A stretch of 63,938 bases of DNA, filler included, from Candidatus Tectimicrobiota bacterium (GTDB taxonomy: Bacteria > JACPSX01), in NCBI GenBank assembly GCA_016193065.1. It is 9 parts of 9 records of this genome, joined end to end, with 100 filler letters (N's around TTAATTAATTAA, not from the genome) between each part and the next. Parts side by side here need not be neighbours in the genome. Positions count along the whole stretch, not along the records: positions 38,832 to 43,436 come from JACPSX010000114.1; 8 more parts are not named here. One strand, given 5' to 3'. Below are positions 4,831 through 43,436 of this stretch, in pieces. Under the pieces are notes generated by a model. The model worked only from the letters and a program-made list of their open reading frames with translations. It did no database searches and was not told where the DNA came from. The translations under genes and the position numbers were made by a program. Numbering within the stretch: position 1 is the first letter of the stretch; every line of letters begins with the position of its first letter.

Positions 4831-5487
4831 TTGAAACCCGAACAGATCCACGAGGCAATCCGCATCTTGCGAAATCTATCCCGGCACTGGACGTCACCCG
4901 CCGTATCTCAGGTTACCGCCAAGGGGAAAGACCCTTTCAAGATCTTCCTGAGCACCGTGCTGAGTCTCAGGACCAAGGATGATACCACAGGACCAGCCTC
5001 GGAGCGCCTTTTCGCTCTGGCCTCCACACCCAGGGAGATTCTGAAGTTGGGCCGGGCCAGGATTGAGCGCGCCATTTATCCGGTGGGGTTTTACAGGGTC
5101 AAGGCGGCCACCCTCCTTGAGATCTGCAGGGTTCTCGTACGGAAATATAATTCGAGGGTTCCCGATGACCTGGACGAACTCTTGAAATTGAAGGGGGTGG
5201 GGCGGAAAACGGCGAACTTAGTCGTCACCATGGGATACGGGAAGCCGGGGATCTGCGTGGACACCCATGTCCGCCGCATCTGCAATCGCTGAGGTTATAT
5301 CTCTACAAAAAATCCGCTGCAGACCGAGATGGCCCTGCGACAGCGGCTTCCCCGACTGTATTGGATCCCGTTCAATCACTTGCTCGTATCCCTTGGACAG
5401 AACATTTGCCGTCCTGTTTCTCCGCTTTGCAGCCTCTGTCCTTTGTCCCATCTTTGTGAACGGAAAGGGGTGCGTGTGTGGAGATGA
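4831..5487 (+). pseudogene. nth: Endonuclease III (HhH-GPD, 4Fe-4S) interrupted by an in-frame TGA at 5290-5292
   Basis: LSLRTKD, GVGRKTAN and VDTHV. After the TGA the frame continues GYISTKNPLQTEMALR...CRPVSPLCSLCPLSHLC (Fe-S motif) to TGA 5487. RBS GGAGG precedes TTG 4831. Confidence 0.85.
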
Positions 5488-5540
5488 GAAACCGGCACTC
5501 TGGAAACTTGGTGCCGGGCTGTCAATCGGGAAGGAGGGCC

Positions 5541-6005
5541 TTATTGCACGATTCGTCGGATCTTTATAAGGGGATGGCGGAGTTGCAACGCCGGGCTTGG
5601 GGGAGACAGAGGCACGTGAGATTCGGCCTGTACCGCCGAGGGTTTCTGTCCTAAAACAGCGGGATGCTCAGGATACGCTGTTTCCGTTCGCGGCCGCTTG
5701 ACCCCTTTTGCCGCCGTCTTGGCAGGGACCTTTCTCTTCGTCGGCATGGATTTCGAGCGAACGGTCAGTTTCCTGCCTGTCGAACCCTTGACCTTGGCTG
5801 TGGAGGACTTCGGTGTTTCTCTCAACTTGCGGCTGGAGGCCAGGAAACGTAAAAAGGCCTTTCCAAGTTCCTCCTTGGAATAAACCAGGAGACCTCCGGG
5901 CTTTCGCTTGCACTCGACTCCTAGCATCCTCAGGAACTTGACGGCACTTTTCATGCCACATCCGAGGTGGGATGCAAGTGTTTTTGTACTTGCAGGGTTT
6001 TTCAT
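5541..6005 (-). CDS. Basic Lys-rich hypothetical protein, possibly DNA-binding
   Basis: RBS AAGGAGG upstream. HTH-like N-terminus (TLASHLGCGMKSAVKFLR) followed by a K/R/A/P-rich tail. Confidence 0.55.
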   Translation of the reverse strand: MKNPASTKTLASHLGCGMKSAVKFLRMLGVECKRKPGGLLVYSKEELGKAFLRFLASSRKLRETPKSSTAKVKGSTGRKLTVRSKSMPTKRKVPAKTAAKGVKRPRTETAYPEHPAVLGQKPSAVQAESHVPLSPPSPALQLRHPLIKIRRIVQ

Positions 6006-6299
6006 ATTTAGCCTCCTTTAACCCGTGCCCAGGCTATCAACGCATAGAATTTGTATATATTTTAACATCTTATTGATTCAAAACACAGAAGGAAGTGGGG
6101 AAAACCCTCTTTTCTGCCCTCTGAGAAAAGGATTTAAGACTGTATCCAATTGAAAAGAATGATCTTTGTTGTGTTATGGGGGATCATTCAGGGGCCGTGA
6201 TTTCTCTTGACATGGGAGGTAACAATAGGTTATGGAATCAAAAAAATGCTCGTTGAGTCTTAGCGAGGGGGGATCTCGTTAATTGAAGGAAAATCAGTC

Positions 6300-38831: not shown

Positions 38832-39605
38832 CATTCCGTTGAGTTCCTGCATCTCGGTCTCGGTGATCGTGCCCGCCAGCTCCCCCAGGATTCGTTTGGC
38901 TCCCTCCTCCACATCGGCGCGCACCAGGGGTGCAGCCAGATAATCGGGGAAATAGTGCCGATCGTCTTCCAGAAGTATCAGATCGAATTTCCGGATGTCT
39001 CCGTCCGTCGAGTAGACATCCGTCAAGTCCAGTTTGTTCTCCCGGATCGCCTGGTAGGCCAGGCCGTGCTCGATTCCCGAAGGCCTCACGGTGAGCCCGT
39101 AGGTACGGGCCAGTCCGGGCCAGCCGTCCTGCCGGTTGAGGAACTCCAGGCTGAAGCCAAAGCGCAGGCCCGGCAACCGGGACAAATCGCTGATCCTCTT
39201 CAGACCCAACTTCTCGGCCAGGTTTCGACTTACGGCAATCGCGTAAGTGTTGCTGAAGCCGAAGGAGTCCAGAAGATCCAAACCAAACTGACTTTTCAGA
39301 CGGCGGCGCAACTCGCCATACGAGACCCTCTCGGGCAACTTCAGGACCGCCTGCTCCAAGGTCCCCGAATATTCCGGGTAAAGGTCGATGCCACCGTTGC
39401 GCAGGGCGTCAAAACAAATGAGCGTCCCCCCCAAGCCGAACTTCCTATCCACCGCGAAGCCGCGGTCTTCCAGGAGCTGGGCCAGAATCTCCGAAAGGAT
39501 GTAGCCCTCGTTGAAATGCTTGGAGCCCACCACAATGGTCCGCTGCGGAGCCGGGGCGCTCCTTCCCGGCCAAAGCAGAAGAAGGAACACTGCGGCCAGC
39601 GCCAT
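38832..39605 (-). CDS. OpuAC/OsmF/EgtU-type betaine ABC substrate-binding domain (3' truncated), in frame with the upstream ATPase
   Basis: VVGSKHFNE, GLGGT, IDLYPEYSGT, GFSNTYA, R-DG-PGL, YSTDG and LEDD-FPDY. Confidence 0.88.
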
Positions 39606-40211
39606 GGGTGCCTCCCGGAGATCGTGGGTGACCAGGATCATGGTCCTCGCTTCGAGCTTCTGCAGGTGCAAGAATTCCTGATGAATCTCGTTGCGGGTCA
39701 TGGGATCAAGGGCTCCAAACGGTTCGTCCAGGAGAAAGATCTTTGGATTCAGAATCATGGCCCGGCACAGTCCCACCCTCTGCTGCTGCCCGCCGCTGAG
39801 CTCGTAGGGGTATCTCCGCTCAAAAGAAAGCGGAAGGTCCACCAACCGCATGAGATCCTGACCTCGGGCCCGGACTCGTTCGGGCTCCCAGCGGGCGAGC
39901 CTGGCCAGCAGCGTGATGTTTTCCCAGACCGTCAGATGCGGGAACAGGCCCGTACCCTGCACCGCATAACCGATCCGCAAGCGGAGCTGCGGCAGCCGTT
40001 CGTAGTCGATGGGATTCCCAAAGACGGAAACCTTCCCCCGAGTGGGCCGGATGAGCCCGTTGATCAACTGCAAGAGGGTCGATTTTCCGCTGCCGCTGGG
40101 GCCCACCACGGCCGTGGTCACAAGATCCGTGAAGGCAAGGTGAATGTCTGCAAGGGCCGTTTCGCCGCCGTAGAACTTGCTGACTCCTTCCAGGAAGACC
40201 TGGGAGCCCAC
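39606..40211 (-). CDS. OpuBA/ProV-type ABC ATP-binding protein, C-terminus missing and fused to the SBP
   Basis: GPSGSGKS, LSGGQQQR, LLDEPFGALD and VTHD. The sequence after HDLREA is absent. Confidence 0.85.
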
Positions 40212-40243
40212 TCCCCCTTCTCCTTCCACGGAGCAGAGCCTCA

Positions 40244-41563
40244 CTAGAGGGCGCAGGTGCGAAAGCCGGCAAAAACGTCCCGGCGGTCCGCCGTGTAGAA
40301 ATTCCGCCAGGTGTTGCGGATCAAGCGGGAGCCCGTGGCCCAGCATCCCCCCCTCAAGACCTTGTGGGTTCCAAACCAGGGCTGGGAATACTCTTTATAC
40401 GGATCCACCACAAAATCCGGATAGGCTCCGAAATCCGTGCCCGTCCACTCCCACACGTTCCCGATCATCTGCCGGCATCCAAAAGCGCTGTCGCCGGCGG
40501 GAAGGGAGCCCACGGCAATGCAGCCAAGCCTCGCAAAGTCCAGGTGAGCCCGCTCTGTTGAAGGGGGCTCGTCTCCCCACGGATACCGCCGCTTTCGCTC
40601 CGCGCTCTCGCGGCCACCGGGCAACGGATCTAAGCTGGCCGCCATCTCCCATTCAGCTTCCGTCGGCAGTCGCCGCCCCGCCCACCGGCAATAGGCATCC
40701 GCTTCGTACCAGTTCACGTGAATGATCGGGAGGTGGTCCTCCAGCGAAACGAGCTGGTCAAAGCTGCGGTCCCGCCAGCGCCCCCCGGCCCCGCGCTCCC
40801 AGTAGACCGGCTGGCTGGCGCCGGACTCTTCCCGCCAGATCCAGCCCGCAGCGCTCCAAAACTCCCGGCGCCGGTAGCCACCATCCTCTACAAATGCGGC
40901 AAACTCGGCGTTCGTCACAGGGGCGCGCGCGATTCGGAAGGTCCGCACCTGGACAGGGTGAGCCCATTTCTCGTTGTCAAACACGAACGCGAGGTCAGAC
41001 GTGGCCCCAAGCCAGTAGGTGCCGCCGGGGATCTCCACATCCCCGGGCAGCGGCCCGCCGGCGGGTTCGGAATGAACCTGAGCCGGGATGTCCAAGAGAT
41101 GAGGCCGGGAGTAGCCGAGCGTCTGTCGCGTATAGGTGAAAGCCTCTGCGTGCATGCCCGTGTGGAAAGCCGCCAGGTGATGGAAGTAATCTTCCTCAGC
41201 ACTCGGCTCGATGGAGCTGAGGCGATCGAGCACCCGGTCCCGCACCTCCTGGACGTAGCGGAAGGTTTCCTGCCGGGCAGGCAGCGGCAGATCCCAGCGG
41301 GAATCGTGGGGGACAAGGGCGGAGTCGTAGAGGGCGTCCCCATCCGGGCGGATCGGCTTTGCCCTGCCCAGGTGCCGCAAGACCCATTTTTCCGCAAACC
41401 ATGCGACATGGCCGATTTCCCAGAGCGGGGGATTGACGATCGACAAGCGGGGCCCCATCATCTGCTCGTCCGTCAGGTCTGCGACGAGATCCACGGCGAC
41501 TCCGTGAGTCTCGCTCACCAGTTGAGCCAGCTCAGAAGCGGCGGTTAAGGATTCTATTTTCAT
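40244..41563 (-). CDS. senA: Selenoneine synthase SenA-like (EgtB family DinB + FGE-sulfatase enzyme)
   Basis: NPPLWEIGHVAWF, LYDSALVPHDSRWDLPLP, FHTGMHAEAF (iron ligands), FVFDNEK, RRLPTEAEWE, GNVWEW and YKEYSQPWFG. N-terminal motifs fit the SenA branch better than canonical EgtB (from recollection). Confidence 0.75.
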   Translation of the reverse strand: MKIESLTAASELAQLVSETHGVAVDLVADLTDEQMMGPRLSIVNPPLWEIGHVAWFAEKWVLRHLGRAKPIRPDGDALYDSALVPHDSRWDLPLPARQETFRYVQEVRDRVLDRLSSIEPSAEEDYFHHLAAFHTGMHAEAFTYTRQTLGYSRPHLLDIPAQVHSEPAGGPLPGDVEIPGGTYWLGATSDLAFVFDNEKWAHPVQVRTFRIARAPVTNAEFAAFVEDGGYRRREFWSAAGWIWREESGASQPVYWERGAGGRWRDRSFDQLVSLEDHLPIIHVNWYEADAYCRWAGRRLPTEAEWEMAASLDPLPGGRESAERKRRYPWGDEPPSTERAHLDFARLGCIAVGSLPAGDSAFGCRQMIGNVWEWTGTDFGAYPDFVVDPYKEYSQPWFGTHKVLRGGCWATGSRLIRNTWRNFYTADRRDVFAGFRTCAL

Positions 41564-41608
41564 AACTCCTCCTGAAGCGCCTCAGGCAAGCGGTGGTTGG
41601 GCCGTGCT

Positions 41609-42718
41609 CTATTCCCAGACGGCTCGGGCCGCCTCCACGACCAAATGGAGTTTTTTCTTCTGTGCCTCGGGGGTGAGGCGGTTTCCCAGAACCGAGGAGG
41701 AGAAGCCGCACTGGGGGGATAAGGCCAGTTGCTCCAGAGCCAGATAGCAGCCCGCCTCCCGGAGTCGCGCGCGGATCTCTTCCGGAGTTTCCAACCGGGA
41801 GTTCTTCGTGGTGATCAATCCCAGGACGGCGATCTTGTCCTCGGGTACCTCGCGCAGGGGCTCGAAGGACCCGGAGCGCGCGTCGTCGTACTCAAGCAGC
41901 AGGCGTTGCGCCTTCACGCTCCGGAAGATCCGCCGGGAAATCTTCTCATACCCGCCCCGGGCCAGCCACCGGCTGCCCTGGTTTCCCCGTCACAGGTGAA
42001 AGCCGAAGGTCACGCCGGGGAAGCTTCCCATCACGGCATTGTCCATCTCGATCCCTTGCCCCAACCAGCGATCCAGGCTCCACCCCTGCCCCTCGTAAAA
42101 AGCCCGGGTCCGCGGATCCACCAACAAACCGTAATGAGGGGCATCGATCTGGATGTAGAGGGCCCCCAGGCGGACCAGCTCGGCCACCTCCTCCTGCAGG
42201 ATCTCCACCACATCGGCCAGAAAAGAATCGAGGGTCGGATAAACCTCCCTGGAGCGCTCGGACGACCAGAAGCTGGCGAACAAGCTGGGGCTCGGCAAAG
42301 TCACCTTGGCGGTTTTGCGGGTCCGGCCCCGCAGGTAGGTGAACTCTTCCGCCGAAAGGTGACGCCGGCGGTGGAGTTTGCCAACGACCCCCAGAGAAGC
42401 TGGACGGGACAGGCTCCAGTTTCCCACCTCTTCATCCCCATGCCAGTGGCCCCATAGAAACGCATCGCTGCTGTACTCGCCAAACCCCTGGACAGCTTCC
42501 GTCATCTGGCTTTGAAACGACTGGCGGCGCATCTCGCCATCGCTTACCACTTCCAGTCCTGCCTCCTCCTGGAGGGATACAGCCTCATCGACCGCCCGAT
42601 CCTCAATGGCCTTAAAGGCCGAATCGCTGATCGCTCCCGCCGCCACTTCCTGCCGGGCCTTGAACAGCCAGGGCGGGCGCAGCAGGCTGCCCACCGTATC
42701 CGCGCGGACCGTGATCAT
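41609..42718 (-). CDS. Cobalamin-independent methionine synthase II-like (core MetE) protein with in-frame UGA (predicted Sec) at 41990-41992
   Basis: VGSLLRP, SDGEMRR, YIQIDAP, HL*RGN, GGYE, LEYDDARSG and LSPQCGF. The two tracked ORFs are in the same frame and join across the UGA. Confidence 0.85.
41959..41989 (-). promoter_or_regulatory. Putative bacterial SECIS element
   Basis: After UGA: CGGGGAAACCA-GGGCAGCC-GGU-GGCUG(G)CCC. Stem-loop with a G-led apical loop 19 nt from the UGA. Confidence 0.6.
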
Positions 42719-42728
42719 TCACCTGACC

Positions 42729-43436
42729 TCAAGAGCGAGTCGCCGAAAGGGAAAGGGCGAAGAAGTTTTCCGCGTCCGTCTCCCAGCGCAGAAGCTTTAG
42801 CCCGGCTTCTTCCAGCATTTCTTCCACCATCCTCCGGGTGTACTTGCAACTGATCTCCGTGCGGATCGATTCTCCCTTGGCAAAGTCAACCGCCAGACCG
42901 ATCTCATCGATCCAGGCGCGGTGGGACTCCCGGGCTACGAGGTGCATCTCGATTCGTGATTCCCGCTCGTTGTAAAACGCCAGGTGATCGAAGAGATCCA
43001 GCTTAAAATCCGCCCCCAGATGCTGATTGATGACCGACAGCATGTTCCGGTTAAAGGCCGCCGTTACTCCCGCGGAGTCGTTGTAGGCCCTCTCCAGAAG
43101 GGCGACATCCTTGACCAGGTCTGTACCCAGCAGAAATCGATCCTGGGGGATGAGAAGCCTTGCCACATTGCGCAGAAAGGCGACGGCTTCCTCGGCAGTG
43201 AGGTTTCCAATGGTGCTCCCCAGGAAGGCAACCAGACGGCGCCCCTCTTCCGGGGGCAGTTCGACGGGGAGGTTGAAGTCTCCGGTCACGCCGCGCACCC
43301 GCAATCCCGGATAGTCATTTTCCAGGGCCCGGGCCGTCTCCTGGATCATGTCTTCACTTAAATCAATCGGCACATAGAGATCCAGGAGCCTATGACACGC
43401 CATGGCATCGAGCAGGACCCGGGTCTTCCGGCAGTT
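42729..43436 (-). CDS. egtD: Histidine N-alpha-trimethyltransferase (5' truncated)
   Basis: KTRVLLDA, YVPIDLS, FLGSTIGN, GTDLVKD, AYNDSAGVTAAFN, RIEMHL and IRTEISCKY. Confidence 0.92.
   Translation of the reverse strand, partial: NCRKTRVLLDAMACHRLLDLYVPIDLSEDMIQETARALENDYPGLRVRGVTGDFNLPVELPPEEGRRLVAFLGSTIGNLTAEEAVAFLRNVARLLIPQDRFLLGTDLVKDVALLERAYNDSAGVTAAFNRNMLSVINQHLGADFKLDLFDHLAFYNERESRIEMHLVARESHRAWIDEIGLAVDFAKGESIRTEISCKYTRRMVEEMLEEAGLKLLRWETDAENFFALSLSATRS

Follow-up and report, generated by a model that had tools for sequence, protein, structure and literature searches.

A conserved egtD-senA operon of a Methylomirabilota-like groundwater bacterium includes a core MetE-like gene with a predicted selenocysteine at a zinc-ligand position

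One of the closest described counterparts of the locus reported here is the senA-senB-senC cluster of Variovorax paradoxus (10.1101/2022.04.13.486033), and egtD is co-located in a subset of sen clusters, as far as the available portion of that report goes. In the window (i.e., the whole stretch of DNA analysed, 63,938 nt in length), contig JACPSX010000114.1 (positions 38832-43436) comes from a Methylomirabilota-like bacterium of groundwater and carries a conserved operon with the order egtD, a MetE-like gene with a predicted selenocysteine (Sec), senA, an ATP-binding cassette (ABC) ATPase and an EgtU-like binding protein/permease. The locus has the SenA class in common with the V. paradoxus cluster, as judged by hidden Markov model (HMM) and active site, and a co-located egtD with the subset mentioned above, whereas neither senB nor senC was found in or near it, and it additionally has an EgtU-like ABC system and the gene of a MetE-like selenoprotein. 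As for the MetE-like enzyme, the core methionine synthases MesA-MesD and the 1YPX-like 'cobalamin-independent methionine synthase II family', as presented in the accessible part of PMC7857596, likewise consist of one Meth_synt_2 barrel of ~ 370 aa with conserved motifs for homocysteine binding and for zinc (H-x-C...E...C); the enzyme of the window differs from them in having Sec for the first zinc-ligand Cys, and it is distant from MesD. Bacterial selenoproteins with a possible metal-ligating Sec, as treated in the accessible sections of a 2026 review (PMC13188914), share the Sec/Cys pair at a metal position and the downstream hairpin, whereas the enzyme here would transfer alkyl groups, with Sec at its catalytic zinc. 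The EgtUV ergothioneine importer is similar in that the binding domain of the window is nearest to EgtUC and is partnered by a ProV-type ATPase, whereas the domain order here is binding domain, then permease. The first-pass annotation of this DNA, which knew of no described sen/egt cluster with a MetE-like enzyme and read the contig as a selenoneine/ergothioneine operon, holds as an observation, and its interpretation is partly supported by the results below; indeed, the table of synthase-adjacent genes in a 2026 survey (PMC13674229, in its accessible part) lists no MetE-like family.

The MetE-like gene (41609..42718, minus strand) has 369 codons and encodes a 1YPX-like Meth_synt_2 protein, that is, a single-domain 'core' enzyme of 369 aa without the N-terminal folate-binding half. 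It matched the Pfam family Meth_synt_2 (PF01717) with 54.8 bits (cut-off 21), and the canonical MetE profile TIGR01371 gave 44.5 bits over positions 430-601 only, for a cut-off of 929.95. A canonical two-domain MetE (~ 750 aa) was rejected, since the folate-binding domain is lacking and the score falls far under this cut-off. The closest solved relative is 1YPX with 156.8 bits, and MesD (3RPD, ACIAD3523) reached only 44-46 bits, so that identity with MesD was rejected as well (43.7 bits for 3RPD versus 156.8 for 1YPX). Note that DUF1852 (MesX) does not occur among the Pfam families of the annotated recurrent neighbours, the genomes themselves not having been searched for DUF1852. In the family alignment, GS (S11), GE (E62), D192, H241, C/U243, E276 and C337 are invariant, and these motifs were also aligned to those of MetE structures. 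In MetE, the GS, GE and D residues bind homocysteine and H, C, E and C are the zinc ligands (Price 2021, PMC7857596, accessible part), and E276 would be equivalent to Glu665 of the Escherichia coli enzyme. In addition, the related genome G002 has MetH (1,704 bits) and a canonical split Meth_synt_2 pair, which makes the MetE-like gene an extra, specialised paralogue.

The single in-frame TGA of this gene (41990..41992, minus strand; codon 243) almost certainly specifies Sec, judging from its position and recurrence in the alignments. It takes the place of the invariant zinc-ligand Cys of HLC, H-x-C being the zinc-ligand motif of MetE-type enzymes (Price 2021, PMC7857596, accessible part), and Cys is found at this position, within F-H-L-C-R-G-N-Q, in 16 of 16 aligned homologues; full-length Cys homologues are 67-73% identical to the window protein (among the best 120 of 7,999 candidates). 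The TGA occurs at the same codon in two related loci, L001, whose SenA is 80% identical to that of the window, and L002, from a Candidatus Methylomirabilis metagenome-assembled genome (MAG), as well as in 9 of 61 relatives of G002 (a set that includes the unpublished G012 and G026). Moreover, the metagenome pattern H-x-TGA-R-G-N-Q-x-S-R-W returned at least 119 matching stretches, 80 of which were examined, and 79 of these encode MetE-like homologues with the same TGA at 57-74% identity, many of them cut by contig ends. Overall, at least 88 distinct sequences (57-77% identical) have TGA at this codon and keep the frame downstream of it, and the 72 full-length copies examined from all loci contain no more than one stop each. 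SelA, SelB, SelD and tRNA-Sec were all above cut-off in the relatives G001 and G002. The TGA codon is otherwise a stop in the source organism, since egtD of the same operon ends in TGA. These results agree with the initial reading of the UGA as a Sec codon. Separately, SelD of G001 and G002 has one in-frame TGA, as does SelD in 7 of 7 relatives examined (L089, L090, G010, G016, G029, G040, G044); since this holds in every relative examined, SelD of the Methylomirabilota-like relatives is itself a predicted selenoprotein. A 2026 review mentions a MAG of Methylomirabilota for which 63 selenoprotein genes are predicted.

A Sec insertion sequence (SECIS)-like hairpin (41960..41978, minus strand) follows the UGA. 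Its 8-bp register begins 11 nt 3' of the UGA, and its inner 5-bp stem CAGCC/GGCUG (41963-41975), with the loop GGU, begins 14 nt 3' of it; in the window, the 8-bp helix has a G-G mismatch at its third pair counted from outside (41976/41962, alignment columns 20/34). The five inner pairs persist in 75-80 of the 80 Sec-form sequences. SECIS loops generally require G/U at roughly this spacing from the UGA. The Arg codon of the loop is CGG, which gives the loop GGU, for 69 of the 80 Sec forms, and it is CGC or CGT for all 5 Cys forms, the control set comprising these 5 sequences only, since 301 Acidobacteriota genomes scanned for such DNA yielded a single match. The GGU loop via CGG is the sole Sec-specific feature of the hairpin that was seen. 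Several observations weigh against taking the hairpin as support for Sec: the fold of the 76-nt UGA region (z = 0.91) is no more stable than its shuffles, the covariation is weak (89.1% of cells paired compared to 87.6% in shuffles), RNAalifold retains just 4 pairs (covariation term -0.15), and a similar fold forms in the five Cys-form genes, the S-R-W-L codons (AGC CGN TGG CTN) being self-complementary. By itself, the hairpin is thus non-discriminating as Sec evidence. Note that the Cys forms (L063, L233, L234, L251 and L254) already carry the S-R-W-L hairpin and that the Sec forms differ from them mainly by CGG. On the tree, at least 13 Cys/Sec switches are counted by parsimony, of which at least 2 are forced by well-supported branches, and a latent hairpin in the Cys forms may explain this repeated switching.

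Positions 38832-43436 correspond to exactly one whole contig (4,605 bp); the window itself is made of nine contigs with N44-TTAATTAATTAA-N44 linkers between them, and genes across linkers are not genome neighbours. Every gene of the contig lies on the minus strand, with gaps of 10 bp (egtD/MetE-like), 45 bp (MetE-like/senA) and 32 bp (senA/ATPase), as noted in the first description of the five-gene layout. The gene of the histidine N-alpha-trimethyltransferase, egtD (42729..43436, minus strand), ends in the TGA stop mentioned above and its 5' part is cut by the contig end; it scored 258.4 bits with TIGR03438 over profile positions 74-300 (cut-off 290.9, to be read with the 5' cut of the gene) and 256.7 bits with Pfam Methyltransf_33, and its full-length orthologues in L001 and L002 reached 364.9 and 380.8 bits with TIGR03438. 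The concern raised at the outset that the contig could be chimeric was checked with contigs assembled from four groundwater runs, which belong to one study, may include the source sample and are not fully independent. Single contigs bridge egtD, the MetE-like gene and senA (X2, 40370-43319; X1, 40695-43020) as well as the senA/ATPase junction (X4, 39853-40362; X3, 39984-40286), and the TGA region is covered in all four runs with zero differences. Since the contigs of these runs bridge the genes and match at the TGA, chimerism of the contig over its genes is rejected and the TGA is genuine. None of the sequencing runs listed as carrying the locus was from RNA.

The order egtD-MetE(Sec)-senA-ABC was also found in L001, L002, L128, L162 and L242-L246, and the MetE-like gene lies inside an egtD-senA-ABC cluster in 13 of the 14 related genomes having such a gene. 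Twenty regions around SenA in the relatives were compared and fall into four layouts (A-D). Layout A (egtD-metE(Sec)-senA-ATPase-binding protein/permease) was seen in G002, G006, G007, G008, G011 and G016, and also in G014, G017 and G019, the last three by coordinates only. Layout C (senA-egtD-ATPase-permease-binding protein-metE(Cys)) was found in G044, G046 and G050, over two contigs in G058, and in G056, where it is cut before its end, and layout D corresponds to senA alone (G025, G029, G037 and G040). Layout B is taken up below, where the linkage is weighed.

On its profile scores and active-site residues, the EgtB-like protein (senA; 40244..41563, minus strand; 439 aa with DinB_2 and FGE-sulfatase domains) is a SenA-class C-Se/C-S bond synthase of the non-heme-iron selenoxide/sulfoxide type, SenA being the class first proposed for it. 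The NCBIfam SenA profile (NF041186, cut-off 420) gave 504.6 bits for the window, 502 for L001 and 515.4 for L002, and the EgtB type I profile TIGR03440 gave 333.9 bits, under its cut-off of 360. The window protein carries His at EgtB Arg87 and Tyr at EgtB Asp416, N/E/H close to the iron site and Y-N-F where OvsA (8U41) has M-Q-A. Such residues define SenA, namely His/Phe-Tyr for Arg87/Asp416, N/E/H and the Y-N-F hercynine triad (PMC11030361; Kayrouz 2022, 10.1101/2022.04.13.486033, both in their accessible parts), Arg87 and Asp416 being the thiol-binding pair of EgtB in the latter report. EgtB type I was rejected on the score under the TIGR03440 cut-off and the His and Tyr that replace Arg87/Asp416, and the ovoselenol synthase OvsA was rejected on the Y-N-F triad, in place of the histidine-accepting M-Q-A, and the adjacent egtD. 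Among solved structures, OvsA scored 329 bits, the type I EgtB of M. thermoresistibile 257 bits and V. paradoxus SenA 238 bits, so that by whole-sequence score the window protein is nearer to the first two. The score of V. paradoxus SenA is low because its alignment is interrupted over query residues 316-367, a segment through which OvsA and EgtB align without a break. The twelve active-site positions of the window protein read NEHHRHHYNFYR. No other pattern is as frequent among SenA genes next to SenB (26 of 53), and 14 of 27 genes without adjacent SenB have it too; these figures come from 80 SenA loci surveyed across many phyla, 53 of them with SenB adjacent. Two side observations concern this class. 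In some SenA of layout A (L002, L128, L242, L244), the hercynine triad is T-Y-Y, not N-F-Y, and the window keeps N-F-Y. In addition, L047:8599-11308 holds two tandem SenA-class genes, 50% and 60% identical to that of the window, beside a putative selenate ABC transporter.

The first-pass annotation had suggested that senB and selD may lie upstream of the truncated egtD, which did not turn out to be the case: housekeeping genes occupy this place in L002, and neither SenB nor SelD was found in the 64-kb window or in the 20 SenA regions compared among the relatives, where SelD is present and unlinked to the cluster. The selenium donor step (SenB) is thus not encoded in the cluster. Among the 61 relatives, SenA was above cut-off in 36, the MetE-like gene in 14 and SenB in 4. 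The SenA-class enzyme may thus use another donor (i.e., sulfur, or a selenol not from SenB) and not make selenoneine via SenB, which we regard as possible but unlikely. Indeed, SenB was not found in 32 of the 36 SenA-bearing relatives, a tally that weighs against selenoneine as the product and in which most genomes are incomplete MAGs. One of the 32 is G040 (a 2.75-Mb single contig, nearly the whole 2.8-Mb assembly), where SenA, EgtD, a Sec-type SelD and MetH are present, no SenB match was found at E <= 1e-40 and the neighbourhood of the layout-D SenA held nothing informative. On the other side, besides the incompleteness of most of these genomes, the active-site pattern of SenA is unchanged despite SenB being mostly not found, and the twelve positions of the window, including His and Tyr, are those commonest next to SenB. 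A family 4 glycosyltransferase (GT4) could also replace SenB. The weak matches of G001 and G002 to the SenB model (~ 96 bits) are GT4 proteins, distantly related to SenB, that fit NF038229 better (338 bits; L085:1468-2508 in G002). In G002, the gene adjoins a selenium-metabolism-associated LysR regulator (310 bits, above cut-off; both within L085:497-2508, G002:C193), and homologues were found in 44 of the 61 relatives, the four with SenB not being among them. Since GT4 was also found in at least 11 relatives without any SenA match above ~ 90 bits (cut-off 420), it is not dedicated to SenA, and as a SenB stand-in it could serve as a lead only, not an established replacement.

Taken together, these data are compatible with a conserved operon in which the MetE-like enzyme would regenerate methionine and S-adenosylmethionine (SAM) for EgtD, a reading of the whole to which we give an even chance. 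EgtD would make hercynine, the SenA-class enzyme would put selenium (possibly sulfur) on the imidazole C2 and yield selenoneine or an ergothioneine-type product, and the EgtU-like ABC system would transport the betaine. In the MetE-like enzyme, a Zn(His, Sec, Glu, Cys) site would bind homocysteine or selenohomocysteine for methylation from a non-folate donor, and methionine and SAM would be regenerated for the three EgtD methylations needed per hercynine. Taken alone, the step in which the MetE-like enzyme methylates (seleno)homocysteine and refills methionine/SAM for EgtD is proposed tentatively, at somewhat less than an even chance. It should be noticed that the roles considered for the enzyme (SAM supply, action on betaines, passenger) are mutually exclusive, and that the UGA gate and the non-SenB donor can coexist with them.

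The distribution of the family provides the main points that weigh against a functional tie between the MetE-like gene and this pathway. The MetE-like gene could be a passenger that was inserted once and is retained by linkage, with no such tie to selenoneine or ergothioneine, which appears rather improbable to us. In favor of the passenger, the close relatives G009, G010, G013, G015 and G018 keep the operon without the MetE-like gene (layout B, i.e., layout A minus this gene), the gene lies within 10 kb in only 3 of the 80 SenA loci of the survey (L001, L002 and L063), and 77 of the 79 metagenome Sec forms have neither egtD nor senA within 2 kb, their recurrent neighbors being TauE, a PEMT-like methyltransferase and isochorismatase (33, 21 and 12 loci, respectively). 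The Sec MetE-like family is indeed widespread as Sec/Cys pairs that are mostly unlinked to egtD/senA. FastTree and a quick IQ-TREE analysis placed the Sec-linked and Cys-linked copies apart; however, the approximately unbiased (AU) test did not reject a single clade of both (p = 0.755), and the constrained one-clade tree scored higher than the unconstrained one, so that independent recruitment of the two was dropped and the linkage is possibly one event in one phylum. Several results speak against a passenger, namely the position of the gene within the cluster in 13 of the 14 related genomes that have it, its survival through rearrangement of the gene order and the Sec/Cys change, the gaps of 10 and 45 bp, which would imply co-transcription, and the rarity of the family elsewhere, the Cys pattern being found in 1 of 301 Acidobacteriota genomes. 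Thus, of the co-conservation with egtD and senA that the first reading looked for, the part concerning one lineage stands and the Sec form is not specific to the operon. Two further contexts were observed. In L063, a Thiohalorhabdus MAG, a Cys-form MetE-like gene (5178-6287) is immediately upstream of the genes for an oxidoreductase-SelD fusion, SenB and SenA, a third context tying the family to a sen cluster. In unlinked loci (e.g., L124, L191 and L178), a TauE/SafE-family exporter is divergent, a PEMT/ICMT-like membrane methyltransferase is downstream and an isochorismatase-family gene is upstream.

The MetE-like enzyme could also act on the betaines of the pathway, either by methylating the selenol/thiol product to a Se-methylselenoneine-like compound or by taking a quaternary amine as methyl donor (hercynine, ergothioneine or an imported betaine to homocysteine, in a manner similar to betaine-homocysteine methyltransferase), and we consider this improbable. 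Such an action would fit a gene placed, in two gene orders, between a betaine-forming methyltransferase and a betaine-type importer, and the lack of the folate-binding N-terminal domain would mean that the donor is not methyl-folate polyglutamate used in the canonical way (Price 2021, PMC7857596, accessible part). Against it, the positions contacting the alpha-amino and carboxylate groups of homocysteine do not vary within the family, its many members far from egt/sen genes included, which argues for one common amino-acid substrate and not for a trimethylated acceptor, and no betaine catabolic genes occur among the recurrent neighbors.

Alternatively, the UGA might act as a selenium gate, in that polarity without Sec-tRNA would lower the expression of senA and the transporter and the output would follow selenium, which seems very doubtful: the Sec-type gene lies directly upstream of senA with the 45-bp gap, the Cys-type gene comes last in its operon, and termination at the UGA would fall 375 nt before the natural stop and leave a 242-residue product, but Sec forms are common outside such operons, and no sign of an attenuator or a Rho site was noted, none having been looked for. 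A more elaborate proposal, which we hold in equally low regard, is a SenB-independent route to selenoneine or a 2-selenoimidazole in which the Sec/Zn MetE-like enzyme handles the selenium donor and the UGA ties the operon to selenium; as an example, the enzyme could charge or interconvert selenohomocysteine or methylselenol for SenA. Finally, a pseudogene with a TGA due to sequencing error or inactivating mutation, for which a single TGC/TGT to TGA change would suffice and to which the break of the gene into two by gene callers would conform, has a practically negligible probability in view of the at least 88 distinct sequences with the same TGA and a conserved downstream frame, its confirmation by contigs of four runs and the Sec machinery of the relatives.

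Two testable surprises emerge from this locus, namely an uncatalogued enzyme family with Sec at a zinc site and a SenA without SenB. Sec mostly sits in redox motifs, and Sec at zinc would be unusual chemistry; the family would add to the known selenoproteins a widespread one in which Sec replaces a ligand of the catalytic zinc in a methionine-synthase-type enzyme. Neither 'methionine synthase' nor 'homocysteine' appears in the accessible text of the 2026 review of prokaryotic selenoproteins (PMC13188914), of the BSepDB paper or of one BSepDB supplement, and 'methionine synthase' was not found in a text search of other selenoproteome papers either, although the newest surveys might list the family. 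The Sec MetE-like family was hence not found in the selenoprotein inventories searched, and we do not claim that it is unpublished. Moreover, a phylum where SenA, EgtD and SelD are common and SenB is mostly not found makes the supply of selenium to SenA testable, and the defined five-gene operon can be expressed to approach the function of the uncharacterised 1YPX-like 'methionine synthase II' family.

As for the remaining features, ARAGORN and Rfam scans of the 63,938-nt window returned no tRNA and no Rfam family. The ABC ATPase (ProV/EgtV-like; 39608..40211, minus strand) matched Pfam ABC_tran with 110.9 bits and TIGR01186 proV with 192.8 bits, and the OpuAC/EgtU-like binding domain (38832..39607, minus strand) matched Pfam OpuAC with 185.4 bits. 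The best solved relative of the latter is EgtUC of the ergothioneine transporter (171 bits, a small margin over the ProX type at 152 bits), in keeping with the initial description of an EgtU-like binding protein of the OpuAC type. In the window contig, the ATPase and the binding protein form a single open frame. A fusion of the two was rejected as false, because independently assembled contigs of all four groundwater runs have 158 additional letters at 39607|39608, and L001 and L002, compared to which the window is ~ 158 bp shorter at this place, have separate genes. Owing to this assembly omission, the ATPase of the window has lost its 3' end and is short of ~ 40 C-terminal residues, and the start of the binding-protein gene lies inside the omitted 158 bp, its 3' part being cut by the contig end. 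In L001 and L002, the binding-protein orthologues are 501 and 527 aa long, with the C-terminal permease half fused.

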